From the IMG/VR virus record IMGVR_UViG_3300029613_000341, positions 1 to 42,454 of that record: a DNA stretch of 42,454 nucleotides, one strand, 5' to 3'. This document shows positions 1,720-28,880 of this stretch, piece after piece. A program made the translations under genes and the position numbers. The DNA comes from a virus (taxonomy: Duplodnaviria > Heunggongvirae > Uroviricota > Caudoviricetes). Position 1 is the stretch's first letter. Each line of letters starts with the position of its first letter. Under the pieces are notes generated by a model. The model worked only from the letters and a program-made list of their open reading frames with translations. It was not told the origin of the DNA and searched no databases.

Positions 1720-1720
1720 T

Positions 1721-3469
1721 ATGACAGTGGCAAATTATAATTCTCTTGTCCAGAAAACTTTCTGCGAAAATGCAATTCGTTCCGTTGTCATGATTGATGA
1801 CGATTTTCTGACGTATTCTGAATCAATCAGGGCGTTGAATAACGAAGTTGATTTAGACTACAACAAAATTGACTCATCTAAACGAGCCGCTACTCTTGAG
1901 AGCTTTTTTCAATCTAAAAATATGATTTGTGATGTTGACAATGGTTCTGTTAATTTCGATGTGGATCGGATTAGAAAATCAGATCTTATTATTGTAGATT
2001 ATCATCTTGATAATAATGCACCTGATAAAACACTTAAACTATTACAAGATTTGAAAGACTCCGATCATTTAAATATGATTGTAATATATACTAGAGAGAA
2101 TTTAGAAACGGTTTGGATGCAGATATCATCGACTCTCAAAGGTGCTCTGGATATCAACAGCTTGATCATTGACTACGATAATGAAGATGTCCAAAGTTAT
2201 TGGGAAGACGTTGTATTACCGAACTTAAATGATAATGGTAATAAAGCTCTCACAAGAGATGAAACAATAGCCTATATTAAAGACAGTAAGCCTTGTAGAA
2301 GAATTAAAAGATTAATACATGATGATGCTGTGTTGGAGGATCAAAAGGATAAAAACTTCATTGCAAAAATGATTGCAGAATATGCTGTGTCTAGAAATGC
2401 AATTATTTCTAGCAACACATCTGGCAATGTCATTCGGGGTGATGAAAGCGGAGTAAAATGGATTCAATGTGGTAATATCTTTGTCTCCCTATTTCATAAG
2501 GTTCAAGATGATCATGAAAACGATGGAGATAGGATTTGGCAAACTCTCAATGATTCTCTCATTGAATGGAAACCATCTTATTATCAGTTAATAAAATCTG
2601 AAATTCAGAATGCAATCGAAGCTGAGGCTTTATCTTTTGTAAATCATTTGGCTAACGATCATTACGGTCAAGCTGCGTGGTTAAATGAGATATTAAAATC
2701 AGACTCGCCTGATATTAGATGTAGAAATATTGACTTTGTATTTGGTAATTTATCAGAAGAGCTTTATCAAAGACTTAAAAATAATAATACGCTGGATGAA
2801 TTTATCAAAAGTGTTTTTGATAGCTATTCAAATGAATACGCTAACAGCGGAGTTGCTGCATTGCTCCAATATTGCTCTTCAAAAATGGATCTGCCATCAA
2901 ATAATGATACTTATCACGAAATGTATCATGCTTTAAATATGAATTTGTCTTCAAAGAATTTTGAAGATGGTCATATTTCTACTGGCACTATTTTCTTTGA
3001 TACAGAGTCGAACAAATGGTATTTATGTGTATCTGCGGCATGTGATTTGGTTCCTACTCAGGGTAACGACCCTCACCATGTAAGATTAAGTCCGCACAGG
3101 CTCATTAAAGTTCTGGAGCTTTTTAACGCCAGTCAGAGTAAAGCATTGCCATTTGCTGAACATTCGAAATATATATATGTAATGCATAAAAATCAAAGAA
3201 AATATCTCTCTATTTTCGAAGGGGATAAAACGCTTCCTGTTGTTGATTATATGGTGGTGTTGAATCATGGAACAACAGTTGATGGCGAAGAAAAAAATAT
3301 TATTTCTGCCGTGTTTTTAAGTAATATGGATGGCAACGTGCAAAATGTTCCTGTCCGACTCAAACTTAAATCTCAACTGAGAACTGGTTATGCAGAAAGA
3401 TATCAGGCTATAGCGTCTCAGTATAGCTCAAGGATTGGTGTGGATTATGTATCAATGATGCTACCATAA
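1721..3469 (+). CDS. Receiver (REC)-like domain protein with ~450-aa C-terminal domain of unknown function
   Basis: ATG at 1721 one base after the upstream stop (TAA 1717-1719), GGAG-type RBS just upstream. N-terminal ~130 aa have the receiver pattern: VVMIDDD acidic pair, DLIIVDYHL with candidate acceptor Asp (codon 1997-1999), MIVIYT. Remainder has no motif I recognise. AT-rich. Confidence 0.5.
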   Translation: MTVANYNSLVQKTFCENAIRSVVMIDDDFLTYSESIRALNNEVDLDYNKIDSSKRAATLESFFQSKNMICDVDNGSVNFDVDRIRKSDLIIVDYHLDNNAPDKTLKLLQDLKDSDHLNMIVIYTRENLETVWMQISSTLKGALDINSLIIDYDNEDVQSYWEDVVLPNLNDNGNKALTRDETIAYIKDSKPCRRIKRLIHDDAVLEDQKDKNFIAKMIAEYAVSRNAIISSNTSGNVIRGDESGVKWIQCGNIFVSLFHKVQDDHENDGDRIWQTLNDSLIEWKPSYYQLIKSEIQNAIEAEALSFVNHLANDHYGQAAWLNEILKSDSPDIRCRNIDFVFGNLSEELYQRLKNNNTLDEFIKSVFDSYSNEYANSGVAALLQYCSSKMDLPSNNDTYHEMYHALNMNLSSKNFEDGHISTGTIFFDTESNKWYLCVSAACDLVPTQGNDPHHVRLSPHRLIKVLELFNASQSKALPFAEHSKYIYVMHKNQRKYLSIFEGDKTLPVVDYMVVLNHGTTVDGEEKNIISAVFLSNMDGNVQNVPVRLKLKSQLRTGYAERYQAIASQYSSRIGVDYVSMMLP

Positions 3470-5549: not shown

Positions 5550-6569
5550 TTATTTACCTTGAGAATCTATAGGTAAGATCCCCTTAAAAATCAAAAAATC
5601 TGGATCGTAAGCATAATTGGCTAAAAAATCACCGTTATTGGCAGTTGCTTGGAAAATAATTGTATTTTGATCAATTAGCATGTACAGAGATATCAATATA
5701 TCTCGTAATCCACGAAACATTTCTTTTATTTCTTTTTCATCTGAAAATGATGTTTCTATTCCTAAGTTTGATATCGGATCAAAAATCTCAAATTTGTTGA
5801 CTTCTCTTTCATAATTAACTCCTAGTTCTCTACACAGCCATACCACTTGTGCTTCAATGTTCTCTAAATTAGATATGTTAACTTGTTTTGGGTAAAGCTG
5901 ATTGTATCTTGCTATTTCATGCCCAATGTTGTTATATATATTTTCTAATTTTTCAAGGAATGATTTATCAACTTCATTGTTATATCCAGTGGAGATTGAG
6001 GATTTTGTGAATATTTTTTTATATAATGAGTAGGTATGAACTACAGATAGTTTAATTGTGTCTTTTTCGAAAGTTGTATTATCTCGACGAGAAAGGGTAA
6101 ATGACGGTAACGTTTTAAACATATCCGAATAATTCTTGAGGTGAGCGTAGTAAGCATCACTGCGGTTTTTCTCAGTCACTAGATCTATCTGTTGCTGTGT
6201 TTTCCTAATTTGATTTTCCGTTTGTATTGTTCTGTGAATGTTAGCGACTATAGCTACAAAGGGTATCGAAAGGGAAAGAAGAGCGATAGGCAACTTGCTT
6301 ATTTCAATGAAGTTTGAAAATCCATCAGCATCAAATTGAGGAGAGTGTCCCATCCATGAGAATATACCGAAGTATAAGGATGAGATAATAGGTATTCTGA
6401 TGGATTGTTTAAATAAATTTTGTTTTGTTAGCCTTTCCTCAGTCATTTCAAAATAATTATTATTTTTGTTTTTTGTGTATTCAATAAATAGATATATTAA
6501 ATAAAGAATTATAAGGAACGTAGATATTTCTGGTTTTTTTATATAGCTAATTACGAATTCTTGAGTCAT
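5550..6569 (-). CDS. Membrane protein of unknown function (prophage moron between attL and int)
   Basis: ORF 5550-6581; the Met at 6569-6567 overlaps the int stop as ATGA (TGA 6568-6566), suggesting translational coupling. About three N-terminal hydrophobic helices, ~200-aa soluble C-terminal part. Strongly AT-rich. Confidence 0.5.
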   Translation of the reverse strand: MTQEFVISYIKKPEISTFLIILYLIYLFIEYTKNKNNNYFEMTEERLTKQNLFKQSIRIPIISSLYFGIFSWMGHSPQFDADGFSNFIEISKLPIALLSLSIPFVAIVANIHRTIQTENQIRKTQQQIDLVTEKNRSDAYYAHLKNYSDMFKTLPSFTLSRRDNTTFEKDTIKLSVVHTYSLYKKIFTKSSISTGYNNEVDKSFLEKLENIYNNIGHEIARYNQLYPKQVNISNLENIEAQVVWLCRELGVNYEREVNKFEIFDPISNLGIETSFSDEKEIKEMFRGLRDILISLYMLIDQNTIIFQATANNGDFLANYAYDPDFLIFKGILPIDSQGK

Positions 6570-7594
6570 GGTGTGGTCCATTTTAATCTATATAAAGGGT
6601 TTTTTGATACTGCATCCTCTAAATGATCAGGTGCAAAATGTGCATAAACCATAGTCATTTTTATATCCGAGTGACCAAGGATGTCGCGCAACACGAGTAT
6701 GTTTCCGCCGTTCATCATAAAATGGCTAGCGAATGTATGGCGCAGTACGTGGGTGCATTGGCCCTCCGGTAGATCTATACCTGCCCGTTTTACTGCTCGT
6801 TCAAAGGCTTTTCTACATGGTGAGAATAACTTCCCTCTGTTCTTTGGGAGTTCGTCATACAGCTCCTGTGATATGGGTACTGTTCTGTTTTTCTTGCCTT
6901 TGGTCTTTGTATAAGTAATTCGGTATTTCGATATTTGGTGGCCCTGTAGGTTTTCTGCTTCACTCCATCGCGCACCAGTAGCCAGGCATATTTTTGCAAT
7001 CATTAGTAGGCTGGTGTTTTGAGATTCGGCGCAGGCATTAAGCAGGCGTTTGATTTCGTCCGTGGAAAGAAAAGCCAATTCACCTTCAGCAATTTTGAAG
7101 GTTGGAAGCCCTGCCAGTGGGTTTGGTGCGGACCAGTGCCCTAGTTTTTTCAATGTACCGAACACCGATGACAGATTGCGTTGTTCAAGATTTACCGTGC
7201 GGGGCTTAACCGGTGACATGAGCACGCCATCTTCGTTTTTGATCTCACCTTTTAATCTGGCTTCCCGGTACTTTGTGAAATCACCTGCTGTCAATTCAGA
7301 AGCGATGGGATCGCCAAGCCCATTACAAATGATTTTTAGCTTAGCCATTAATCGCTTAGGGTCAGCGAGTGTCTGACCGTACAGGGAATACCATTGCTCA
7401 ATCACTTCTGACAGTGGTCGCCGATCTTCCTTTTCTCCCAGCCAAGGTTTCTTGTTTACCTCATCCATGGTGAAATTCTCAAACGCAATGGCTTCGCCTT
7501 TCGTCGCAAATTGTTTGCGTACGCGTTTGCCATCTCTCCCGTTTGGGTAGCATTCACATAACCACTTTCCGTTCGGCTGTTTTCTGATCGTCAT
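6566..7594 (-). CDS. int: Phage integrase (P2/186-type tyrosine recombinase)
   Basis: 342-aa ORF with catalytic motifs HVLRHTFASH and LGHSDIKMTMVYAHF; recalled similarity to P2 Int; immediately downstream of cI. Confidence 0.9.
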   Translation of the reverse strand: MTIRKQPNGKWLCECYPNGRDGKRVRKQFATKGEAIAFENFTMDEVNKKPWLGEKEDRRPLSEVIEQWYSLYGQTLADPKRLMAKLKIICNGLGDPIASELTAGDFTKYREARLKGEIKNEDGVLMSPVKPRTVNLEQRNLSSVFGTLKKLGHWSAPNPLAGLPTFKIAEGELAFLSTDEIKRLLNACAESQNTSLLMIAKICLATGARWSEAENLQGHQISKYRITYTKTKGKKNRTVPISQELYDELPKNRGKLFSPCRKAFERAVKRAGIDLPEGQCTHVLRHTFASHFMMNGGNILVLRDILGHSDIKMTMVYAHFAPDHLEDAVSKNPLYRLKWTTP

Positions 7595-7596
7595 GA

Positions 7597-8235
7597 TTAG
7601 ATGCTCTTAATCACTTTTACCACACGCCCTACAACGTCTACGTCATCAACTGCACATTCAAAGGTTGTTTCTTCCTGATGAACAACAAGCTTATTTCCGG
7701 GAATTCGAGCTACTTTTACGATGCTTTTCACTCCATCAATATCAACAAGCCAGGAGCCATTACTGATCTGTTTTACAGATACATCAACAATAAAACTTTC
7801 TGTTGTCGTTTGTATGAATAGATAGTTTGACGAGTCGCCCTCAACCAACCTGCTATCTAATAAAATTTCGTCATATGATTGAAGTTCACCATTTCTTAAC
7901 TCTGTGTATTTGATACTGGGAGCTACGATTTTAGAAAGTGGTCTAATTGTGACGTCATTATCATTTTTGAGAATGTTTACGTCACTGTTATCTGCATACA
8001 TATCACCCTGTCCGGTTGCCAACCAAAGAAGCGAGATCCCGGTTTCTAGTGCACATTGAATTACCCATTCTGCTGGAAAACTATCTCTTAAGTATCTGTT
8101 TGCCATGGTACTTTTTGATACTTTTAAGTGTTCGCAGAGTTGTTGGCGTGAGCTGAAATTGTAGGCTTTTATCAGCCTGTTGATGGCATCACGACCCCCA
8201 CTATCGTTTCCACCCTTGATTAGACTCATAATCAA
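7597..8235 (-). CDS. cI: Immunity repressor, phage 186 CI-like
   Basis: Matches my recollection of 186 CI over its length (NRY.R, CALETG..L.WL.TG.G, GLWLVDI.G..SI, FEC..DD....GRVV.V); divergent from the early operon. Confidence 0.8.
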   Translation of the reverse strand: MIMSLIKGGNDSGGRDAINRLIKAYNFSSRQQLCEHLKVSKSTMANRYLRDSFPAEWVIQCALETGISLLWLATGQGDMYADNSDVNILKNDNDVTIRPLSKIVAPSIKYTELRNGELQSYDEILLDSRLVEGDSSNYLFIQTTTESFIVDVSVKQISNGSWLVDIDGVKSIVKVARIPGNKLVVHQEETTFECAVDDVDVVGRVVKVIKSI

Positions 8236-8240
8236 ACCCC

Positions 8241-8269
8241 TTGACGTATATAAAATGCGATCTTAATAT
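8241..8269 (+). promoter_or_regulatory. Putative early lytic promoter (sigma70-like -35 TTGACG, 17-bp spacer, -10 TAATAT)
   Basis: TTGACG at 8241-8246 and TAATAT at 8264-8269 in the cI to cox/apl intergenic region, oriented towards the early genes. Confidence 0.35.
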
Positions 8270-8345
8270 CCATTCATGGTTTGAAAAGCAAAACCAAACC
8301 ACATAAAACGAGATGAGACGATTACAAACTAAGAGATACTGCACT

Positions 8346-8594
8346 ATGAGCAACGACATTTCAATTCGTGTACCAAAAGTGATGGCGACACCAGCTGAGT
8401 TCGCGGAATGGGAAGGCTACTCTCGCGGTTCGGTATATCAAATGATTCATAATGGTAAGCTCGCTAAGTTTTTAGAAAAAAAGGAAAAACCGAAAGACAG
8501 AGTATGTATACGTTACCTTGAGTACAAAAAGGAACAAGTCAGGAAAAACATGGGCCAATCCAATTTCAACTTTAATGTCATCGTTGGTGGCTAA
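8346..8594 (+). CDS. Cox/Apl-like excisionase and repressor-antagonist (small DNA-binding protein)
   Basis: First rightward gene after cI; segment ATPAEFAEWEGYSRGSVYQMIHNGKLAKF resembles the P2 Cox helix-turn-helix region as I recall it. Confidence 0.6.
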   Translation: MSNDISIRVPKVMATPAEFAEWEGYSRGSVYQMIHNGKLAKFLEKKEKPKDRVCIRYLEYKKEQVRKNMGQSNFNFNVIVGG

Positions 8595-10427: not shown

Positions 10428-11281
10428 GCACCATCCTGAAATGGGCGGGAAATAAAACCGCCATTATGTCCGAACTGAAAAAACACCTTCCTGATGGCCC
10501 GCGACTGGTTGAACCTTTCGCGGGTTCCTGTGCTGTGATGATGGAGACGGATTACCCCAGCTATCTGGTTGCGGATATTAATCCTGATTTAATCAACCTC
10601 TATAAAAAGGTTGCCGCTGATTGTGAATCGTTTATATCTCGCGCCAGAGTTTTATTTGAGATCGCAAACAGGGAGGTGGCTTATTACAACATAAGGCAGG
10701 GGTTTAATTACTCCACTGAAATTACTGATTTCATGAAAGCGGTATATTTCCTGTATCTCAATCGTCATGGTTACCGTGGATTATGTTGCTATAACAAGAG
10801 CGGGCATTTCAACATTCCGTACGGTAATTATAAAAATCCGTATTTCCCTGAAAAAGAAATTCGCGCATTTGCAGAGAAAGCCCAGCGTGCAACGTTTATC
10901 TGCGCAAGCTTTGATGAAACGCTGGCGATGCTGCAGGTGGGGGATGTGGTGTATTGCGATCCGCCGTATGACGGTACGTTTTCCGGCTATCACACTGATG
11001 GTTTCACTGAAGATGACCAGTATCACCTGGCATCCGTTCTTGAACATCGGTCATCAGAAGGACATCCGGTCATTGTTTCTAACAGTGACACATCCCTGAT
11101 CCGTTCGCTTTATCGCAATTTTACTCACCACTACATCAAGGCAAAACGCAGCATCGGCGTAGCAGCTGGTGAGAGTAAATCTGCAACAGAAATCATCGCT
11201 GTTTCCGGGCCGCGCTGCTGGGTGGGATTTGATCCTTCGCGTGGCGTGGATAGTTCTGCCGTGTACGGAGTGCGTGCATGA
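10424..11281 (+). CDS. dam: DNA adenine methyltransferase (Dam-like orphan N6-adenine MTase)
   Basis: N-terminal KWAGNK...FAGSCAV (SAM-binding) and catalytic DPPY motif ([10 protein letters not shown]). Confidence 0.85.
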
Positions 11282-13692
11282 GCCATGCTGATATGAACAA
11301 CTGCAGCGGCTTTAACGAGGCCGCCGCAGCATTCTCATGGAACAGCCCGAAAAAGGCTATTAACCCTTATCTGGACCCGGCGGAAGTTGCGCCGGTTTCT
11401 GCGCTGTCAAACCTGATCACTCTGTACGCTACCGATAACGAGCAGGAACAACTGCGCCGCGAGGCACTGAGTGATCAGGTCTGGGAGCGTTATTTCTTTA
11501 ATGAATCCCGTGATCCTGTCCAGCGCGAAATGGAGCAGGATAAGCTCATTAGCCGGGCAAAGTTGGCGCATGAGCAGCAGCGTTTTAACCCGGACATGGT
11601 CATTCTGGCAGACGTCAGCGCCCAGCCCTCCCATATCAGCAAGCCGCTGATGCAACGTATTGAATACTTCAGTAGCCTGGGCAGGCCAAAGGCTTATTCC
11701 CGCTATTTACGTGAGACGATTAAGCCATGTCTGGAACGACTGGAGCATGTACGCGACAGTCAGCTATCCACTTCTTTTCGCTTTATGGCAAGCCATGAAG
11801 GGCTGGACGGCCTGCTAATCCTGCCTGAAATGAGTCAGGATCAGGTCAAACGCCTGTCCACCCTTGTAGCTGCGCATATGAGCATGTGCCTTGATGCAGC
11901 TTGTGGCGATTTGTATGCCACCGATGATGTTAAGCCAGAAGAAATCCGCAAGACATGGGAAAAGGTGGCAGCAGAAACCCTGCGTCTGGATGTCATCCCG
12001 CCTGCGTTTGAGCAACTCCGTAGGAAAAGAAACCGCCGTAAACCAGTGCCCTATGAACTCATTCCGGGTTCGCTGGCGCGTATGCTGTGCGCCGACTGGT
12101 GGTATCGGAAATTGTGGAAGATGCGTTGCGAATGGCGGGAAGAGCAGTTGCGTGCTGTCTGCCTGGTCAGCAAAAAAGCATCTCCCTATGTCAGCTATGA
12201 AGCCGTGATGCATAAACGTGAGCAGCGCCGTAAGTCGCTGGAGTTTTTCCGTTCTCATGAACTGGTGAACGAAGACGGCGACACGCTGGATATGGAAGAT
12301 GTGGTAAACGCCAGTAGTAGCAACCCGGCGCATCGCCGCAATGAGATGATGGCATGTGTTAAAGGTCTGGAGCTTATCGCGGAAATGCGCGGTGACTGCG
12401 CCGTTTTCTACACCATCACCTGTCCGTCACGTTTCCATTCCACGCTAAATAACGGCAGGCCCAACCCGACCTGGACAAATGCGACGGTAAGACAAAGCAG
12501 TGATTATCTGGTCGGCATGTTTGCTGCATTTCGTAAGGCGATGCACAAAGCCGGATTGCGCTGGTATGGCGTGCGGGTGGCTGAGCCGCATCATGACGGT
12601 ACAGTTCACTGGCACCTGTTGTGTTTTATGCGCAAAAAAGATCGCCGCGCCATTACTGCTTTGTTGCGTAAGTTTGCCATTCGTGAAGACCGCGAGGAGC
12701 TGGGTAATAACACAGGACCACGCTTTAAGTCTGAGTTGATTAACCCGCGCAAAGGTACGCCAACAAGCTACATCGCGAAATACATCAGTAAGAACATTGA
12801 CGGGCGTGGTCTGGCTGGCGAGATCAGCAAGGAAACGGGTAAATCCCTGCGTGATAACGCTGAATACGTTAATGCCTGGGCGTCTCTGCATCGTGTTCAG
12901 CAATTCCGCTTCTTTGGCATTCCGGGGCGTCAGGCTTACCGTGAACTGCGATTGCTGGCTGGTCAGGCGGCAAGGCAACAGGGGAACAAAAAAGCAGGTG
13001 CGCCGGTACTGGATAACCCACGCCTTGATGCCATCCTGGCTGCTGCTGATGCTGGTTGCTTTGCCACCTACATAATGAAGCAGGGCGGCGTACTGGTTCC
13101 CCGTAAATATCACCTCATCAGAACCGCTTATGAAATCAACGAAGAGCCGACCGCCTATGGCGATCACGGTATTCGTATTTATGGCATCTGGTCACCCATT
13201 GCAGAGGGCAAGATCTGCACTCATGCAGTGAAGTGGAAAATGGTTCGTAAGGCCGTTGACGTTCAGGAGGCGGCAGCCGACCAGGGCGCTTGCGCCCCTT
13301 GGACTCGTGGCAATAACTGTCCCCTTGCTGAAAATTTGAACCAACAGGAGAAAGATAAATCAGCTGATGGGGACCCCAGAACGGACATTACCAGCATGGA
13401 TGACAAGGAGTTGCACGATTACCTGCACAGTATGAACAAAAAAGAGCGCCGGGAACTGGCTGCAAGATTACGCCTGGTGAAACCGAAACGGCGTAAAGAC
13501 TACAAACAGCGAATTACAGACCATCAGAGACTGCAGCTCGTCTATGAGCTGAAGTCCAGAGGATTTGATGGTAGCGAGAAAGAGGTCGATTTACTCCTTC
13601 GCGGCGGCAGTATTCCGTCAGGAGCAGGCTTGCGTATTTTCTATCGGAACCAGCGTTTGCGGGAAGATGATAAGTGGCGGAACCTGTATTAA
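11278..13692 (+). CDS. A: Replication initiation protein A (rolling-circle HUH endonuclease, P2 gpA family)
   Basis: 804 aa; HUH motif VHWHLL and tyrosine pair YIAKYISKN; position after the early genes matches P2/186. Confidence 0.9.
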
Positions 13693-13844: not shown

Positions 13845-14033
13845 ATGCAGGACTATTTTTTGGAGTCTTTGAAGCTCCAGCGCATTGATTTTTTTCTTAA
13901 GCTTGTAGCGGCTAGTGAGTGTAGTGATGAAGAGAAGGGGCTGGCCCTGCAGTGGGTTTCTGAATTGACTGATGAACTCATGGCAAAAATCAGAACTCAC
14001 GAATACAACCGCTCAATGGATGTCATCAGTTGA
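13845..14033 (+). CDS. Small protein downstream of the LexA box (possibly the N-terminal part of a Tum-like antirepressor module)
   Basis: 62-aa ORF with strong RBS (AGGAGGAAAG before the ATG); same position as the SOS-inducible tum operon of phage 186. Confidence 0.45.
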   Translation: MQDYFLESLKLQRIDFFLKLVAASECSDEEKGLALQWVSELTDELMAKIRTHEYNRSMDVIS

Positions 14034-14043
14034 GGTGACTTTT

Positions 14044-14277
14044 ATGCGCATTGAAATAATGATCGATAAAGAGCAGAAGATTAGCCAGTCTACCCTGGAC
14101 GCTCTGGAGTCCGAGCTTTACCGCAACCTGCGCCCCCTGTATCCCAAAACGGTAATTCGTATCCGTAAAGGTAGCTCTAACGGTGTGGAACTGACCGGAC
14201 TGAAACTGGACGAAGAAAAAAAACAAGTGATGAAAATTATGCAGAAGGTGTGGGAAGACGACAGCTGGCTGCATTAA
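14044..14277 (+). CDS. DinI-like protein (DinI/Tum C-terminal domain family)
   Basis: 77 aa, MRIEIMIDKEQKISQSTLDALESELYRNL...KIMQKVWEDDSW resembles DinI as recalled; downstream of the LexA box. Confidence 0.7.
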   Translation: MRIEIMIDKEQKISQSTLDALESELYRNLRPLYPKTVIRIRKGSSNGVELTGLKLDEEKKQVMKIMQKVWEDDSWLH

Positions 14278-14591
14278 GAAACGTTGCCCCCAGGAGGATT
14301 CATTCTGATGGGGGCTAGTTTGGGCAACGAGTGAAATAAGGTGTAAGGTCATTTTGATAAATGATCGTCTGCTTTGTGCAAGATGCAAACGTTTCTTCTG
14401 CTAACTTTCGTTAATTAACGAATGGCAGACTAATTCGCAACGGATAATCTGAATTTTGTAAGATTATGGGCATTTCTATAAAATTTACTAATAATAACCT
14501 TACAATGTACACTACCGATTGAATTTTCCATAGTTGGCCTTTGGCTCTACTTACCATCTATGTTTATGTATTTTATCAAAATGGACTAAAA

Positions 14592-16484
14592 ATGAACAAT
14601 ACGTACATCAAAGACTATATAGAATATTACCTTAGCCTTACAACTGAACCTCAATACGCCATTATGCTTAAAGGTGCTTGGGGATCAGGTAAAACTTGGT
14701 TCATTGAACAAGTTCTTGAAGAATATAAGCAGAAGAATTCAGAGTTTAAATTTCTAAAAGTGAGTTTGTATGGCGTCAACTCTATTAAACAGATTGAAGA
14801 TGAGTTCTATCGTCAACTTCATCCTGTCCTATCAAACAAAGCCCTTATCTTTGGTGCAAATGTACTAAAAAATACGCTTAAGGCTACTTTCAAGATCGAT
14901 CTCAATGGCGATAATAAATCTGACGTTGATGTCAATACCAATGTTCCCACCATTAATCTTAACGATTTTAGTAGAAAACCAGATGGTTTTGTGCTGGTCT
15001 TTGATGATATCGAGAGAGCTGGTATAGATTTACCAATTTTATTTGGATATATAAACCACTTTGTAGAAGTAAACGGATACAAAGCGATCTTGGTTGCCAA
15101 TGAAGAAGAAATAATCAATAGAGAAAAGCGAATAAATAATGATGATGAGAAATCTAGCAGCGAATACATGAGAACAAAAGAAAAGCTTGTTGGTAAAACA
15201 TTTGAAGTAACGTCAGATTTACATAGTGCTTGTAATGTTTTTTTGGGCGTAATTAGCAGTTTACACGTTGCTAATATATTTAAAGAAGATATGCAGGCCA
15301 TAGAAGACATCTATGTGTCGGCGAAATATAATAATCTAAGACACTTGAGGCAGTTCTTTCTTGATGTACAACGCATCATTTCCCTTTTGGGAAATAAATA
15401 TGTCAGCAACGACGATTTTATGAGGGTATTTTTCCAGCAGTTGTTAATTTTCTCGATAGAGTACCGGGGAGGGAACCTTAACTACGAGGAATTCGATTCA
15501 ATCAGCAATGTTAATTATGGTATGTTTTTAGGTAAAGAGCGTACCAAAACTAAGTATGACATGATCGTCGAGAAATATTCATCTCCTGTATTAACCGAGA
15601 AGTTACTGGATGGTGCGTACTGGAGGGAGCTAATCTGTGATGGAAAGGTAACGAGTGAACTTCTCGCTCAGTTGGATATTACGCGATTTTTTAGAAGCAC
15701 CGATGCCCAAGCATGGGAGTATTTGTGGAACTATCGAGAACTTAATGAAACTATGCTTAATGAGCAGTACGCCATTGCCAAGGATAATCTATTTTCAGGT
15801 AAGATCACTTCCTTAGGTGAACTCCTGATGACCGCGAGTATTTTGCTGGACATGGCGAAAGAAGGTCTAACAACAGATGATGTTCATGATCTCATAAATG
15901 AGACAAAACAGAATATAAATAATTATTATAATAGACTTAGAGCTGAAGATATACATAAGGAATATGCGCAAACGCATTATAACGAATTAAGGGCATGGCG
16001 TGGCTTTGGTTTTCTTGACAGGGATAGCGATGAATTCAAACTCATTATTGAGCATATTGAGATAGCGAAGAAGAAACGGTTTGATGAATCAATTCCGGAA
16101 TTTGCGTTGCAGTTCAGCGATGAGTTGCAAAGGGGAAACTTATCGTTTGTATCTGAATTGAGTCATTCTAATAATAGGCAGTTAAATCTTCATAATGTGC
16201 CTTTTTTACACTTGGTTCCTCCTGAAGTTTTCATTGAAAGCTATAGGAAACTTGACCCAGTCCTCATGAGGAAACTGGCATTTAGCTTGCGGAATCGTTA
16301 TTCTGATGGGGATGCTAGAACCAGACTGACCGAAGAATACAACTGGTTGATTAACCTAAAAGAGATAGCTGTAGATTTCACTCAAAACGCAGCCAATAAC
16401 TCCTTTCAGGTTTTTCACGTAAAGTTTTTTATTGACTATGTATTAACTAGCGCAATCAAATTCTTTACTGAGGGAACTGATTAA
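14592..16484 (+). CDS. P-loop NTPase (Walker A GAWGSGKT, Walker B VLVFDD; possibly KAP-type), ~630 aa
   Basis: ATG at 14592 (ORF open from an alternative TTG at 14541); Walker A and B motifs present; long C-terminal region without motifs I recognise; strongly AT-rich; followed by a terminator. Confidence 0.7.
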   Translation: MNNTYIKDYIEYYLSLTTEPQYAIMLKGAWGSGKTWFIEQVLEEYKQKNSEFKFLKVSLYGVNSIKQIEDEFYRQLHPVLSNKALIFGANVLKNTLKATFKIDLNGDNKSDVDVNTNVPTINLNDFSRKPDGFVLVFDDIERAGIDLPILFGYINHFVEVNGYKAILVANEEEIINREKRINNDDEKSSSEYMRTKEKLVGKTFEVTSDLHSACNVFLGVISSLHVANIFKEDMQAIEDIYVSAKYNNLRHLRQFFLDVQRIISLLGNKYVSNDDFMRVFFQQLLIFSIEYRGGNLNYEEFDSISNVNYGMFLGKERTKTKYDMIVEKYSSPVLTEKLLDGAYWRELICDGKVTSELLAQLDITRFFRSTDAQAWEYLWNYRELNETMLNEQYAIAKDNLFSGKITSLGELLMTASILLDMAKEGLTTDDVHDLINETKQNINNYYNRLRAEDIHKEYAQTHYNELRAWRGFGFLDRDSDEFKLIIEHIEIAKKKRFDESIPEFALQFSDELQRGNLSFVSELSHSNNRQLNLHNVPFLHLVPPEVFIESYRKLDPVLMRKLAFSLRNRYSDGDARTRLTEEYNWLINLKEIAVDFTQNAANNSFQVFHVKFFIDYVLTSAIKFFTEGTD

Positions 16485-16769: not shown

Positions 16770-16788
16770 GGCGTGGCGGGGATACGAG
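16770..16788. other. Candidate cos site (cohesive-end region)
   Basis: GGCGTGGCGGGGATACGAG followed by GCGCGCTG; the first 13 bases match my recollection of the 186/P2 cohesive end (GGCG[T/A]GGCGGGGA). Coordinate and identity are tentative. Confidence 0.3.
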
Positions 16789-16896
16789 CGCGCGCTGTAT
16801 GCCTGAAGTGGCTAAAATAGTATCTGTCATAGGTACAACTTAGTGTAGTATCATCCATATAATCCATTGAAATATAATCGACTCTCATTAGAGGTG

Positions 16897-17895
16897 ATGA
16901 TGAACGGAATCTGGTACGAAAACACTCATACACGCATTCCTAATTTTGAAACAACAGTACATCAAAAGCACAAATTCGGTTACGCTTATGAAACAACAAG
17001 TCATTTTGTGCATCTGTATGGGCGTGACGTGGGATTTAATGTAATATCAGTTGGGTTAACTGTTATTGAGCAACGAAGTGGAACTCTCAATGATTGGGTT
17101 CGGAGAGTATTTGGGGCTCAGAACATATCTCCTTTAGATAATGAAATTGGACATGTAACTAGGGGAGTGTGGCGGCCATCCTTATATTATGTCAATGATA
17201 CAGAAACAGCATTAGGTATCGATGAGTTTGAAAAAAGAGCAACAGAGCAAGCTCTAAGAGTTTTGATAGAAAAACTCGATGATATTTTTCTATATGTAGA
17301 ACCAAGTGCCCATGGTTTGATTTCTTACAGTCATAAATGTAGAGAGCTATTAATTCTTGCTTGTACTGAGGTTGAAAATCAATGGGTGTCAATCATTGGT
17401 AATTCGAATTTATCTCGTTCAAATGGTCGATACTCCACAAATGATTATGTGAAATTATTAGATAAGTGTTATTTGTCTGAATATAAAATTCAATATTTGA
17501 ATTATGACGGATTAAGGCATTTCAAACCTTTTGATGGGTGGAATGCAAGTACCCCTACAACATCTTTGTCATGGTATAATGCATATAATAAAACTAAACA
17601 TGATAGATCAGGAGCATTCCACTTTTCCACTTTAGAAAATGTGATGGATGCAGTTGCTGCTTGTGTTGTAATGTACTGTGTAAAATATGGCCCGTTTAGC
17701 TTATTGGAAGCCAATACGTCTCTATCAACGATCGTTAATCAAAACTTTTCAATTTCATTAGATAATAGCAATCCAGCAAGTTATTACATTCCTGAAATTG
17801 AACTTCCACCGGATACAAGAACGGATTTATTAATTTATGATTGTTATCGAGAAAACCATAATAAAGCATGGGTCACTGATCCCCTAGTGCTCTAA
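16897..17895 (+). CDS. Hypothetical protein (~332 aa), unknown function
   Basis: ORF 16867-17895 (alternative TTG); ATG at 16897/16900 with GAGGTG RBS; AT-rich; no motif I recognise. Confidence 0.5.
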   Translation: MMNGIWYENTHTRIPNFETTVHQKHKFGYAYETTSHFVHLYGRDVGFNVISVGLTVIEQRSGTLNDWVRRVFGAQNISPLDNEIGHVTRGVWRPSLYYVNDTETALGIDEFEKRATEQALRVLIEKLDDIFLYVEPSAHGLISYSHKCRELLILACTEVENQWVSIIGNSNLSRSNGRYSTNDYVKLLDKCYLSEYKIQYLNYDGLRHFKPFDGWNASTPTTSLSWYNAYNKTKHDRSGAFHFSTLENVMDAVAACVVMYCVKYGPFSLLEANTSLSTIVNQNFSISLDNSNPASYYIPEIELPPDTRTDLLIYDCYRENHNKAWVTDPLVL

Positions 17896-17951
17896 TTTCC
17901 TGCTAAAGGGAGCTTTTAATTATAAACGCTCCCTTCGGTTGTCGCTATTTA

Positions 17952-18578
17952 TTATATATCAATAGAGTTTTGAAATTTTAATAACTGCCATCTTGTTAAT
18001 AGTGGTTTTATTGCTATGTTGTGTTGGGTATTTATTTTTAAACCTTCGAATTTCGAATATCCATTTTCCAAGGCTTCCACTGAAAAATGAATGGTTTTTG
18101 TTATCGGGTTTATAGCACAAAGATTTAGGTCATATAAAGTATGAATGTCACTTCTGAGCAATAATCCATTGCTAATATGATTGTGACTATCGTTTCGATA
18201 TACATTAATGTGAGCAGCATCAAGAATATCAACAAGCTTACAGCCCGTAACCGCACAAGTAGGATTTGATTTTAATAGCTGGTCGCGAAATGTTTTTTGC
18301 CCACTTCGTTGTTTTATTTGCCGTTCTACAATTTGCCGTTGATCTTCACCCATTAAAGTGGGGGTGTCTTTATCAGCTTCGCTGGCGTTGAGCTCCAGAA
18401 TAATAGTATGTTGGGCGGTAAGCAAAGCAACAGCCCATTGATAGTTAACTTCTTGGATGGACATTTGCCCATTGTAGCGTGGAGTTTCATCTATAAATTG
18501 TGACATTGTAATATTGGATAATTTACGGTACTGGTTGCCGCAGTATGCTATAAATTCTTTAGCTGGCTCAAAAACCAC
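17952..18578 (-). CDS. HNH endonuclease domain protein (C-terminal part of an apparently split gene)
   Basis: HNH motif CAVTGC...LDAAHI...NGLLLRSDIHTLYDLNL; annotated start is GTG; the frame stays open upstream to a stop at 18669-18671, overlapping the end of the upstream ORF. Confidence 0.7.
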   Translation of the reverse strand: MVFEPAKEFIAYCGNQYRKLSNITMSQFIDETPRYNGQMSIQEVNYQWAVALLTAQHTIILELNASEADKDTPTLMGEDQRQIVERQIKQRSGQKTFRDQLLKSNPTCAVTGCKLVDILDAAHINVYRNDSHNHISNGLLLRSDIHTLYDLNLCAINPITKTIHFSVEALENGYSKFEGLKINTQHNIAIKPLLTRWQLLKFQNSIDI

Positions 18579-18625
18579 TCTGGGTTCATCAAATTCATGG
18601 CCATTATCACAACGCCACTCTGATT

Positions 18626-18919
18626 TTATAGTTTTCCTTTGAAGAATTTTTTTGCTTTGCAGTCTAGGTTAATACATTTGTTACGCTTCTTATTAATGCT
18701 CTGTGTTTCTAATTTTTCAATAACAGATATACCTAAAATATTTTCTCTGTTGGTAATAATATCACCGTCTTTTACATTTTTGTGGTTCGCTACAAAACTG
18801 TCATAGCGATAGAAAACTGATGAGTCATCGGGATAACTATCATTTCCCCAGTATCTAAGATCGTCTTTCTCAATTGCCTTAAAAAAAACCATACTTGCTG
18901 TACCATGAACTTTTCCCAC
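18626..18919 (-). CDS. Small ORF immediately upstream of the HNH ORF (likely the N-terminal part of the same gene, separated by a frameshift)
   Basis: 97-aa ORF ending ...CKAKKFFKGKL; an A7 run (T7 on plus strand, 18647-18653) lies where the two frames overlap. Confidence 0.4.
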   Translation of the reverse strand: MGKVHGTASMVFFKAIEKDDLRYWGNDSYPDDSSVFYRYDSFVANHKNVKDGDIITNRENILGISVIEKLETQSINKKRNKCINLDCKAKKFFKGKL

Positions 18920-18976: not shown

Positions 18977-20008
18977 TCATCCCAAAGAATATGGCTCAAA
19001 TCGCAAAATTTTTTGTTCTAACCAGTCATTTACTTCACGCATCCTTTTTTGCAACGGTAATAATTCATTTCGCACAAACACATTTGCCGCCTTCTCCACA
19101 TCCCCAAACCCCCCAACATTGCTAGGCATTATCCCCATCATTTGTGGTGGCACACGATGCGCTGCCATCATGTCATCCCGACTCACGTTCTTGATGTTAA
19201 GAAATTCATCCTTCGCTGCGACTTCTGATAGCGGGATAATCTGAAGCCCGTCTTTTTTGCCGTTAGGCGAGTACATAAACAGGTTGCGGAAGTTACCCGG
19301 ACCTTTGGCACTTTTCATCGCGTTGCGGAGGTTGTTTACATCCTCCTGGTTCTGCGCGGCGTCGGTCATGTACATGATGAAGCCTGCATGACTGCCGTTG
19401 ATGTAATACTTACGGCGGAACAGCGTGGCGGACTCATTGAGCAGGGCGGACGGAATGGCAGAAAGATAGCCGGGCAGGCCGTAGATCTCTTGGTTAATGT
19501 CCGGTTCCATCAGATGAAAAATGCTGCCTTTCGTGAACTGATACGGCTGGGTTGTCATACCGTATTGCACAAACCAGTAGGTATTCAGGTCTAACCCGCG
19601 TCGGGTGTATTTTGCCAGAGCAGGCTCAAGGGCGATAACTTCACCGAAGCGGTTCGTGCGTTTCTCCAGGTAGGCGTTACCAAATACCAGATAGTCCTGC
19701 ACAAAACGTGAAAAAGCCTGCTGGCTGAGCAGCGGGTGAGGGATGTAGGTACTGGTCAGAATGTTGCATTTCACCGCAATTGGTGAACTGTGATGCACGG
19801 CGGCGCGGAAGGTGCGCGCCAGTCCGTCAAAACTCACTGGCGGCTCATACCAGCGATCTGTCTGTACGCATTCCACATAGTCCAGTAGTTCACGGCGGTC
19901 CAGAACCGGAACGGGATCGCCGAAGCTGAATGCTTCGGCTGAAGTCTGGTTTTTATGCTGGGTCTGTTTCGTCGCCGCAGCGCGGTTCTTCTTACTCTTT
20001 CCCATCAA
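18977..20008 (-). CDS. Q: Portal protein (P2 gpQ family)
   Basis: 343 aa; position and recalled similarity to P2 Q; stop abuts the terminase start. Confidence 0.9.
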   Translation of the reverse strand: MMGKSKKNRAAATKQTQHKNQTSAEAFSFGDPVPVLDRRELLDYVECVQTDRWYEPPVSFDGLARTFRAAVHHSSPIAVKCNILTSTYIPHPLLSQQAFSRFVQDYLVFGNAYLEKRTNRFGEVIALEPALAKYTRRGLDLNTYWFVQYGMTTQPYQFTKGSIFHLMEPDINQEIYGLPGYLSAIPSALLNESATLFRRKYYINGSHAGFIMYMTDAAQNQEDVNNLRNAMKSAKGPGNFRNLFMYSPNGKKDGLQIIPLSEVAAKDEFLNIKNVSRDDMMAAHRVPPQMMGIMPSNVGGFGDVEKAANVFVRNELLPLQKRMREVNDWLEQKILRFEPYSLG

Positions 20009-21771
20009 AAAATCTCCACAATATTGCTGGTATTGGCGGACTCGCCCTGCAGCGGTTCGTTAAACAGTGCGTGCATTGTTGCCCAGGCCAGATCGGCATG
20101 GCTGGCTTCTTCGCTGCGGCTGGCTTCATAGGTCGGGCGGTTGCCGCTGGCGGTGGTGGCGCGACGGATTGCCATGAATGACTGCGCAATGTCGGTGTGC
20201 CCGGCGTCAAACTCAAGACGGCGGTGGCTGATAATGTCGTAGGCCTTGAGTACCAGGGCGTTTTTAACGTTGGGGTTGTAGACAAACTCCCGGACGGCAG
20301 GAAAAAACGCTTTCACGTTCTCGTAAACCCCGTGACCAACGCCGGTTGAGTCGATGCCGATATAGGTCACGTTGTACTGTTCGGTCAGTTTTTTGATGGC
20401 GTCAGCCTGGGCGCGAAAGTCCATTCCGCGCCACTGGTGACGCTCAAGAATGCGGAACTTACCGCCTGGCACGGCTGGCGGTGCCACCACCACGCATCCG
20501 GCGCTGTCGCCGTTCTGCGTACCTTTTGCCGGGTCATAACCGATCCACACTTCGCGCCAGCCAAACGGGCGCAGGGCCAGTGCATGAAAGTCGGTCCAGA
20601 CTTCCCAGCTGTCCACCATGCACGCCTGCAATTCGCTGAGCGGGAACACGGACGCGAGATCGTCCACGAACTCGCACATCAGCAGGTTCTGGTATTCGTC
20701 AGGGCTGTACTCCATGCGCAACTGGTCAAGGTCGAACAGGTTACAGCCGCCGCGCACCGCATCTTCCACGGTGACTATCTGGCGGTATTGCCCGTCTGCG
20801 CACAGCAGGCCGGGGGCCAGATTGCTGTGGGACAGGTCGATGTCCACCTTGTCAGCTTTGTTGCGCCCACGGTTGAACAGCGCACCGGACCAGAACGGAT
20901 AAGCACTGTGGGTCAGACTGGATGGTGTGGAAAAATAGGTCTGCCGCCATTTCTTGTGAATAGCCATACCGGAAGCCACTTTGCGTAGCTCCTGAAATTT
21001 CGGTATCCAGAAATATTCATCCAGATACAGGTTGCCGTGATAACTCTGGGCCGTGCGGGCATTGGTGCCGAGGAAGTAAAGCGTGGCCCCGTTAGGAAGC
21101 ACCATCGGATCGCCTTTCAGCTCCACCTCCACTTCTTTGGCGAAGTCGATGATGTACTGCTTAAAGACGTGGGCCTGTGCCTTACTGGCGGAAAGGAAAA
21201 TCTGGTTACGCCCGGTAAGCAGGGCGTCAATCAGGGCTTCACGGGCAAAGTAAAAGGTCGCGCCGATCTGGCGTGACTTCAGCAGGTTGCGGATGCGGTT
21301 GGTTTTTCCGGCTTCCCACCAGTGGCGCTGGTAGTTGAACATGGAGGAATGGAAGATTTCTTCCAGCTTCTCAATCTGTTCATCGGTGAAGACATTTTTT
21401 TCCGGCTGACGGCGCGGGCCTTTGTTGCGGTTGGCGACGTTAGGATTTAAGTCGGCTTCGTTGCCGCCATTGTTAAACTTGCCGATCCGCGCGTGGCGCT
21501 CAGACTGGCGCGCCAGCAGGTCAATCTCTTTGAAATCTTTCCCTTCTTTGTGCTCCTTCATAATGAGCTGGCAGTAGCGTGCGGCGGTGGTGAGCTGCAT
21601 CTGATCCAGCGGCCCATAGTCACCCCACTTGTCGCGTTTTTTCCAGCTGTGAACGGTTGCAACTTTCTCGCCCAGCATTTCAGCAATGCGGGCTACGCGG
21701 TATCCCTGAAAGTACAGCAGCATGGCCTGCCGACGGGGATCGAGATCTGCGGGTGTCAGTGTGGTGTTCAT
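20005..21771 (-). CDS. P: Terminase large (ATPase) subunit (P2 gpP family)
   Basis: 588 aa; divergent from the O-N capsid operon as in P2. Confidence 0.9.
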   Translation of the reverse strand: MNTTLTPADLDPRRQAMLLYFQGYRVARIAEMLGEKVATVHSWKKRDKWGDYGPLDQMQLTTAARYCQLIMKEHKEGKDFKEIDLLARQSERHARIGKFNNGGNEADLNPNVANRNKGPRRQPEKNVFTDEQIEKLEEIFHSSMFNYQRHWWEAGKTNRIRNLLKSRQIGATFYFAREALIDALLTGRNQIFLSASKAQAHVFKQYIIDFAKEVEVELKGDPMVLPNGATLYFLGTNARTAQSYHGNLYLDEYFWIPKFQELRKVASGMAIHKKWRQTYFSTPSSLTHSAYPFWSGALFNRGRNKADKVDIDLSHSNLAPGLLCADGQYRQIVTVEDAVRGGCNLFDLDQLRMEYSPDEYQNLLMCEFVDDLASVFPLSELQACMVDSWEVWTDFHALALRPFGWREVWIGYDPAKGTQNGDSAGCVVVAPPAVPGGKFRILERHQWRGMDFRAQADAIKKLTEQYNVTYIGIDSTGVGHGVYENVKAFFPAVREFVYNPNVKNALVLKAYDIISHRRLEFDAGHTDIAQSFMAIRRATTASGNRPTYEASRSEEASHADLAWATMHALFNEPLQGESANTSNIVEIF

Positions 21772-27282: not shown

Positions 27283-27721
27283 ACTGCAGAAAGTGGACGA
27301 CTGGCTGAGTGCCTTGCTGGCGAATCTGGAGCCAGCCGCAAGAAGCCGCATGATGCGCCAGCTGGCGCAGGAACTGCGCCGGATACAGCAGCAGAACATC
27401 AGGATGCAACGCAATCCAGATGGCAGTAGTTATGAACCGCGACGGGTAACAGCACGCAGTAAAAAGGGGCGCATCAAACGTCAGATGTTTGCAAAGCTGC
27501 GAACCACAAAATACCTGAAAACTGCCGCCAGCGCCGATTCTGCCAGCGTGCAGTTTGAAGGCAAGGTACAGCGCATTGCCCGTGTTCACCATTACGGCTT
27601 GCGTGATCGCGTCAGCCGTAAGGGGCCACAGATACGTTATGCTAAACGTAGGTTACTTGGAATTTATGATACTGATTTTGATATTATAGAAGAGATAATC
27701 ATGAATTTTTTGATTCGTTAG
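27275..27721 (+). CDS. S: Tail completion protein S (P2 gpS family)
   Basis: GTG start; recalled similarity to P2 S (LLANLEPAAR..MMRQ.AQELRR.QQ.NI..QRNPDGS.Y.PR.VTARSK.GRI.R.MFAKLRTT.Y, QRIARVHHYGLRDRVSRKGP). Confidence 0.85.
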   Translation: MAELQKVDDWLSALLANLEPAARSRMMRQLAQELRRIQQQNIRMQRNPDGSSYEPRRVTARSKKGRIKRQMFAKLRTTKYLKTAASADSASVQFEGKVQRIARVHHYGLRDRVSRKGPQIRYAKRRLLGIYDTDFDIIEEIIMNFLIR

Positions 27722-28880
27722 ATTCATTAATTTTCTTAAAGTATGAGTCTATTTTTTCAATTAATAAATTGATGCTTTTTATAAATTCTTTTGTTTCTTT
27801 CTCTGTTGGTTCATGTGATGTATGAGCTATTTTGTCACGTAATTCTTTCCTATTTTTATTTGCATGTTGCCACTCAAGTGGCGCAATTTCGGGTACAGAG
27901 ATGTTAAAGAGTTGTTTGAATAGTTTTTTACATCTATCATCGAACTTCCAGTTTTTATTTAATGTTTCTTTTGTCTGGCATTCATTGATACCATTGCGAT
28001 GAAAGGCATTAATAATTTTTCTGAGAATATAGCTTTCAAGGCCTGCTGATGCTTCAATTACGGCTGATCTAAATGCACCTTTATGAACAAGATTGTCTGC
28101 TCTAATCAATAATAGTTCAGGATGTTCATTGAATTCATTTGACATTAAACGTTTTTTGAAATTATCAATGAGACTTTCATCGTGTTTATACCAGCTTTCT
28201 CTCATTAATGGGGTGATTACTCCAACTAAAGGAATTGCACTTATCTTAATACCATCGCAATAATGCTCTTGTAACACTCCGTTGGTAAATCCTGAGCCAA
28301 CTTGATAAAGAGATATCTCGTCTGCAAATTGATCTTTAAAGGCAACTCTATACTGTTTTATAAAGTGGTTTATTATTCCGATGCATTCCTCTGATCTTTT
28401 AGGTGGAAATATCTCTCTAGCAGTTTTTATTTTTCTCTCTAACTCTATTTTTTTATCTATATCTTGCTGGCTCATTTTGGATAGGAACATCTCAGCATCT
28501 TCCACAGATGGGAAGTTATCTTCTTTCCTTATTTGGTTTCTTATAGAGTTGATTAGTTCTTCATGTGATATTTCTAAAAGGTCAAAACATTCCCAATAGT
28601 TGGCGAGAGAAATAATAGTCCGGCATTTCATTATCCCTCTTTCATTTGTGTGATGTGGTAGTAGTTGTTCTCTGGTACCGATTAATAGGGTTTGAGGGAA
28701 TAAGCTTGCATCTTTAAATAGTGCATAGTAATCGTTGTGAACTGTTAAGCGTAAATGGTTATTTTCATATAGAAAATCATAATCACCATCTGGAATATTG
28801 AGGACATAAGGCAACTCGACCAAGTAACGTGCAGCAAAGATCATTTCAGTCATCTCCATATGAGAATTCAATTGTGCCAA
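27699..28880 (-). CDS. Hypothetical 393-aa protein (moron between S and V, antisense to the late operon)
   Basis: Long minus-strand ORF in the otherwise plus-strand late region; very AT-rich; occupies the slot I recall as orf30 in P2; no motif I recognise. Confidence 0.55.
   Translation of the reverse strand: MAQLNSHMEMTEMIFAARYLVELPYVLNIPDGDYDFLYENNHLRLTVHNDYYALFKDASLFPQTLLIGTREQLLPHHTNERGIMKCRTIISLANYWECFDLLEISHEELINSIRNQIRKEDNFPSVEDAEMFLSKMSQQDIDKKIELERKIKTAREIFPPKRSEECIGIINHFIKQYRVAFKDQFADEISLYQVGSGFTNGVLQEHYCDGIKISAIPLVGVITPLMRESWYKHDESLIDNFKKRLMSNEFNEHPELLLIRADNLVHKGAFRSAVIEASAGLESYILRKIINAFHRNGINECQTKETLNKNWKFDDRCKKLFKQLFNISVPEIAPLEWQHANKNRKELRDKIAHTSHEPTEKETKEFIKSINLLIEKIDSYFKKINESNESKNS

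Follow-up and report, generated by a model that had tools for sequence, protein, structure and literature searches.

The described systems closest to the gene analysed here are single-protein HEPN effectors (AbiV, AbiD/AbiF, ApeA and DS-11 of DefensePredictor), the HEPN-MNT systems HepT/MntA (8xdj, 7ae2, 5yep), whose toxins of ~130 aa lie beside an MNT nucleotidyltransferase antitoxin, the PrrC/RloC effectors, and the cargo that P2-like prophages carry beside cos. The interval between gpA and gpQ is an anti-phage hotspot of P2 (Rousset et al. 2022), and a 2026 NAR study reported that many unannotated hotspot genes prove defensive when tested. In P2 itself (NC_001895), the tQ terminator and gene Q come immediately after cosL, and the phage's own cargo, tin and old, occupies the opposite side of cos. 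The window studied here, a stretch of 42,454 nt, is a P2-like prophage in which a variable, non-backbone gene lies beside cos between gpA and gpQ. We conclude that this gene (16897..17895, + strand; 332 aa from the ATG at 16897) is real, intact, under selection and foreign to the backbone, and that it belongs to a large, uncharacterised, horizontally mobile family conserved across bacterial phyla.

The protein shows no sequence or profile similarity to AbiV, AbiD/AbiF, ApeA or DS-11. It differs from these effectors in having an invariant Tyr in place of their catalytic Arg, an N-terminal domain without a known fold, and an effector role that is so far putative. Compared with the HepT/MntA toxins it is 2.5 times larger and its motif differs. 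An MNT nucleotidyltransferase gene neighbours it in no locus: we detected none in the window, and none conserved among ~80 genomic loci. With P2 old/tin and other gpA-gpQ cargo (Rousset et al. 2022) the gene shares a cos-adjacent hotspot, low GC content and module-wise exchange, whereas it is unrelated in sequence to old/tin and the systems validated in this hotspot and lies on the Q side of cos.

Along the window, gpA (11278-13692) is followed by a DinI-like gene (13972-14277), a KAP-family NTPase gene (14541-16484, + strand; 647 aa, with a P-loop) at P2's old/tin position, cos, the gene under study, an HNH remnant made up of two ORFs (17952-18919, - strand), the portal gene Q (18977-20008, - strand) and the terminase gene P (20005-21771). 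The cohesive-end sequence GGCGTGGCGGGGATACGAG (16770..16788) equals bases 1-19 of Salmonella phage SEN8, annotated there as 'putative cos site', and cos marks the left end of the packaged genome. In SEN8 the orthologue, at 91% identity, is gene 1 and starts 127 nt from the genome end. A reading made earlier from the sequence only had described a 332-aa, AT-rich gene in a position unoccupied in the P2 backbone. Both points are correct: the ORF has a GC content of 35.4%, against 54.6% for portal plus terminase and 52.7% for gpA, and the P2 arrangement leaves no gene between cosL and tQ. Homology among P2-like prophages breaks at cos (~16770-16800), and cargo to its left (the NTPase, or a pair of CDI-immunity and RNase A-like genes) assorts independently of cargo to its right (our gene with the HNH gene, or nothing). 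Thus, we regard cos as a recombination or module boundary.

Other parts of the window also carry AT-rich genes. At its left edge, two genes of 29-36% GC (1-3469, + strand) encode a histidine-kinase-like protein (HATPase_c and HEF_HK) and a Response_reg_2 receiver protein; PADLOC matched neither, and the pair may be a two-component-type conflict system adjoining the prophage. A 343-aa AT-rich ORF (5550-6581, - strand) shares 16 nt with the end of the integrase gene (6566-7594), gave no match in Pfam or PADLOC, and is a second cargo gene without an assigned function in the integrase-att hotspot of P2-like phages. Within the late genes, an island of 34-37% GC holds a 393-aa ORF (27699-28880, - strand) at a site that resembles the Z/fun locus, and its sole match is a weak one to a class I tRNA-synthetase catalytic domain (E 3e-4).

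The mechanical ORF in the ORF list opens at a TTG (16867, + strand), but a Shine-Dalgarno sequence, GAGGTG (16891..16896, + strand), can be read downstream and is kept in SEN8 and E. coli C21, which bears out the claim that the gene has its own ribosome-binding site. As the spacing of GAGGTG suits the second ATG (16900) better than that at 16897, and as MNGI is the start of most homologues, the product is probably a protein of 331 aa from ATG 16900. Two TATAAT -10-like hexamers read from the sequence (16858-16863 and 16873-16878; span 16858..16878, + strand) constitute a weakly supported candidate promoter. SEN8 retains only the second of them (16873-16878), a good -35 is absent for both, and a consensus promoter scan of the stretch upstream of the gene returned no site on the + strand. 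Downstream, the gene is convergent with the HNH gene, as had been noted, and the pair is separated by an RNA hairpin (17902..17939; dG -16.8 kcal/mol, z -3.8) that none of 200 shuffled sequences folded as well as. Its stem is still present in SEN8, and it resembles a bidirectional terminator between convergent genes.

Conservation of the gene is extensive. PHROG 19461 (function unknown) matches it over its full length (E 1.7e-222), a single search returned 811 homologues, nearly all of 331-332 aa, and an exhaustive profile search returned 2,653 representative clusters, 667 of them at E < 1e-30. Homologues from Proteobacteria, Bacteroidota and Verrucomicrobiota share ~50% identity, and in the databases all are named 'hypothetical protein' or bear a stray label. 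The ratio dN/dS is 0.14 against SEN8 (dS 0.32) and 0.08 against an E. coli paralogue-like copy. Given this breadth of homologues and the dN/dS of 0.14, we excluded a chance ORF. The sequence-only reading would have been abandoned if conservation outside this genome and an expression signal had both been lacking; since conservation is very broad, that situation does not arise, even with the promoter evidence weak.

The protein combines an N-terminal alpha/beta domain (residues 1 to ~95; 16897..17181, + strand) with an HEPN-like helical core (residues ~105-270; 17209..17706, + strand), and the entries listed for its structure are Csm6 and HI0074. The N-terminal domain is conserved within the 332-aa clade, and distant members carry unrelated sequence instead; we propose that it could act as a sensor or specificity module. 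Two motifs stand out in the core, both in our alignments (A1 and A2 for the first motif) and in a conservation table of 113 sequences. The first, HKxRELLILACTEVEN (residues 146-161; 17332..17379, + strand), contains the almost invariant R149, E158 and E160, and the second is WYxAYNKTKHDR (residues 226-237; 17572..17607, + strand). Near-invariant positions among the 113 representatives include the polar or charged residues R93, R149, E158, E160, T181, N231, K234, H235 and R237 (the last less strict, at 95 of 113), the aromatics Y184, F212, W215, W226, Y227, Y230 and Y297, and P136 and P211. Judged from these alignments, the invariant set of the core is enzyme-like.

The core is an up-down four-helix bundle of HEPN type. 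In its second motif, N231 and H235 keep the spacing of the HEPN RNxxxH, with Y230 in the Arg position, where Tyr is found in 110 of the 113 representatives and Arg in none. Before the last core helix the protein therefore has, in place of Rx4-6H, the arrangement Y230-N231-x-x-K234-H235, with Asn and His conserved at canonical spacing. Searches of Pfam, NCBIfam and PADLOC with the protein and 24 distant relatives matched no described HEPN family by sequence or profile, and the lone AbiD match among these 25 proteins (E = 0.022) is at chance level. PDB profile searches with two alignments were empty or gave chance matches only, Foldseek found nothing significant in the PDB, and the family profile, compared by hhalign with two single sequences (a RiboL-PSP-HEPN protein and the DUF4145 neighbour), gave probabilities < 1%. 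Thus, the earlier statement that no motif is recognisable holds at the sequence level for Pfam, NCBIfam and PADLOC, with PHROG 19461 as the exception. The fold is HEPN-like and atypical, and because the motif is non-canonical and no profile links the family to described ones, we use the label 'HEPN-like' and do not call it a HEPN member. An invariant Tyr stands where Rx4-6H has its defining Arg, so the protein need not be an RNase, and we put forward RNase chemistry only tentatively.

Members of the family turn up repeatedly in settings linked to defence or to mobile elements, for instance in SEN8, where the cos-Q slot holds one. A 381-aa relative (33% identity) abuts a P2-type portal gene at the end of an IMG/VR contig, and a P2-like prophage of Morganella morganii carries a 71%-identical homologue (6001-6996 of that locus, L098) flanked by the tail-fibre assembly gene and gpU; on the P2 map this site matches the Z/fun locus. 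Since the Morganella homologue occupies another P2 hotspot, P2-like phages acquired the family on at least two occasions and at distinct sites. Further homologues lie beside type IV secretion genes in a Pectobacterium ICE, with GajA/GajB-like genes, a 1,473-aa NACHT protein and an integrase in an E. coli island, next to BrnT, near a MTase and an AIPR gene, and next to a resolvase and an MmeI-type enzyme. An Acinetobacter homologue adjoins a DUF4238 protein, and a single DUF4238 protein has been validated against T7 (Rousset et al.). The genes directly flanking the full-length clade (145 neighbours) repeatedly include integrases, AbiEii-like ATPases, Gabija, DRT and mad (mads-system) genes, along with housekeeping genes. 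Of 32 copies on viral contigs >=20 kb long, 14 fall within the terminal 10% (p = 0.002, with some of the contigs non-independent). A DUF4145-domain protein (7149-8498 of locus L002) lies directly 3' of E. coli and enterobacterial homologues of 74-76% identity, and DUF4145 neighbours also occur at three IMG/VR viral loci; as these loci probably represent one element lineage, the link may not be functional.

A likeness to PrrC/RloC is found in a distant subfamily (37-47% identity over the core) that is enclosed by type I R-M operons at seven loci (L068 and L077-L082), in gut Alphaproteobacteria, Elusimicrobia and Oxalobacter MAGs. The gene order is hsdM, hsdS, homologue, hsdR, YgjP-like gene in six of the seven, and this hsdS-hsdR position is like that of prrC. 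The hsdM-hsdR intervals of these loci hold a SieB-like protein, unknown proteins and the homologue, together with a Shedu SduA_C gene in L080, and the YgjP-like peptidase gene lies 3' of hsdR. Unlike PrrC/RloC, however, the family has no ABC-ATPase domain and no sequence relationship to these effectors, and embedding in R-M operons is confined to the distant subfamily: the window's gene is not R-M associated. By analogy, a guard function might be imagined for the R-M-embedded relatives, as speculation.

That the gene could be defensive is an idea already raised computationally. Table S10 of DefensePredictor (Science 2026) includes WP_231331915.1, whose cluster representative, WP_227534336.1, is the RefSeq protein of our gene in E. 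coli C21. The mean log-odds of this machine-learning prediction is 12.9 (range 10.8-14.1), where the authors' strict cut-off is 4, and a distant 314-aa relative scores 11.9. The entry is labelled 'Putative novel defense gene', and HHblits connected it with no defence protein already known. Accession and motif searches showed the family to be absent from the DefensePredictor tables of tested or validated systems, it was not found in the supplements of Rousset 2022, a full-text literature search by accession and PHROG id gave no match, and we found no experiments on any family member in the literature. Nor did we find an earlier description of the fold, the motif, the independence from neighbours or the R-M-embedded relatives.

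The sequence-only reading had left open whether the gene is stand-alone cargo or a partner of the NTPase or the HNH nuclease, and its neighbourhoods favour the first. No neighbour family is shared over ~45 loci of the full-length clade, the gene stands alone in unrelated mobile contexts, and all-against-all clustering of neighbours at 80 genomic loci yielded no family common to the 332-aa clade; the gene has no conserved partner. A partnership with the KAP-family NTPase across cos could be imagined from the window and from E. coli ET665 and FORC_081, in which the two adjoin, but these are the only two of 12 E. coli genomes with our gene to have both, and the other ten have the CDI-immunity and RNase A-like pair where the NTPase would be. 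A 5.3-kb query showed the NTPase module reaching ~16795 (cos), and then diverging, in >30 E. coli genomes among the matches listed, where the module ends without our gene. The NTPase by itself also matches a single-gene PADLOC candidate, PDC-S49 (E 1e-159). Our gene thus does not track the NTPase, and with the distribution contradicting such a partnership we consider it extremely unlikely. Separately, a 2026 NAR paper named a single-gene KAP/ATPase system from P4 'Reve'. The convergent HNH nuclease is a more constant companion: SEN8 and Pseudescherichia have both genes, and so does each of the 12 E. coli genomes with at least one of them. However, the E. coli copies are virtually one and the same module (identity >=99% within the species), so that this co-occurrence is not independent, and the HNH gene is absent from every other context of the family, outside the SEN8-like P2 lineage. 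What had been called an HNH gene does encode HNH but is no intact gene: its ORFs (17952-18578 and 18626-18919) are halves of one 319-aa protein (PHROG 21425; an N-terminal domain without known identity, plus HNH_2), which SEN8 encodes intact. At 18647-18653 a run of A8 has become A7, leaving ORFs of 97 and 208 aa, and a 6-nt deletion and a 2-nt indel lie near the start. Both the window and C21 show the frameshift at the A-run, and every one of the 12 E. coli genomes with the HNH gene has it annotated as two ORFs, in contrast to the dN/dS of 0.14 of our gene; the homopolymer tract could reflect phase variation rather than plain decay. With the two genes convergent and a hairpin between them, a two-gene system is very unlikely, and we rejected it on the distribution and on the decay of the HNH gene.

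We suggest instead that the gene is horizontally acquired, self-sufficient cargo of the cos-proximal hotspot, and that its product would most likely be a single-protein, abortive-infection-type anti-phage effector. Its N-terminal region, which varies by lineage, would be joined to a conserved HEPN-like four-helix core with an enzyme-like invariant set (R93, R149, E158, E160, N231, K234, H235 and R237) and an aromatic cluster (Y184, W215, W226, Y227, Y230 and Y297). The prophage would make the protein in an auto-inhibited state, the variable N-terminal part would read a cue of the infecting phage and switch the HEPN-like domain on, and this domain would cut RNA, as HEPN nucleases do, so that infection stops. 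We infer the defence phenotype, the sensor role and the RNase chemistry, and they differ in standing: a role in defence is probable, and the combined reading, a self-sufficient anti-phage effector with an atypical HEPN-like core of RNase type, has about an even chance. A defence or conflict protein that is not an RNase, with a bundle (YNxxKH and the aromatic pocket) that binds or processes a nucleotide or other small ligand, or that attacks DNA or protein, is somewhat unlikely. Bolder still, and unlikely in our judgement, the family could be a new enzyme class on an HEPN-like scaffold, built on Tyr-Asn-Lys-His with Arg, Glu and Glu of helix 2 and an aromatic pocket; its variable N-terminal modules would tune it to one cue or another, the R-M-embedded subfamily would guard restriction in the manner of PrrC and respond once a phage has disabled it, and phages would carry the 331-aa form as a version that stands alone in P2 hotspots. 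Homologues beside BrnT, and in ICEs and islands that also bear non-defence cargo, could point instead to a gene that plays no part against phages, be it a toxin of selfish or addiction type or some other lysogenic-conversion function (for example in prophage maintenance or host physiology), the more so as about a quarter of P2 hotspots hold non-defence cargo, such as partition systems (Rousset et al. 2022). Such a function is quite unlikely, however, given that no antitoxin-like conserved neighbour appears at ~80 genomic and 45 viral loci, that relatives are embedded in R-M operons with SieB-like and Shedu genes, that a homologue adjoins Gabija and NACHT genes, and that the DefensePredictor score is high. 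A phage counter-defence factor, anti-restriction or anti-CRISPR-like, would suit a phage-borne gene that comes first at one end of virion DNA, and nucleotide binding is possible for HEPN-fold proteins. Yet the family is common in chromosomal islands and ICEs and occurs inside host type I R-M operons, and 331 aa with an enzyme-like invariant core is unlike the typical small inhibitor proteins, which makes this reading highly improbable.

The locus also illustrates how P2-like phages shuffle their cargo, with cos dividing two modules that are exchanged independently. If the self-sufficient effector proves defensive, it would represent a widespread single-gene immune family of >2,600 clusters that the Pfam, NCBIfam and PADLOC models searched have missed, and that spans Proteobacteria, Bacteroidota, Cyanobacteria, Planctomycetota, Bacillota, Patescibacteria and others. 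Being small, self-contained and high in a machine-learning screen, the gene is cheap to test. A defensive role would further mean that an HEPN-like fold can work with Tyr in place of its signature Arg, or through other chemistry.
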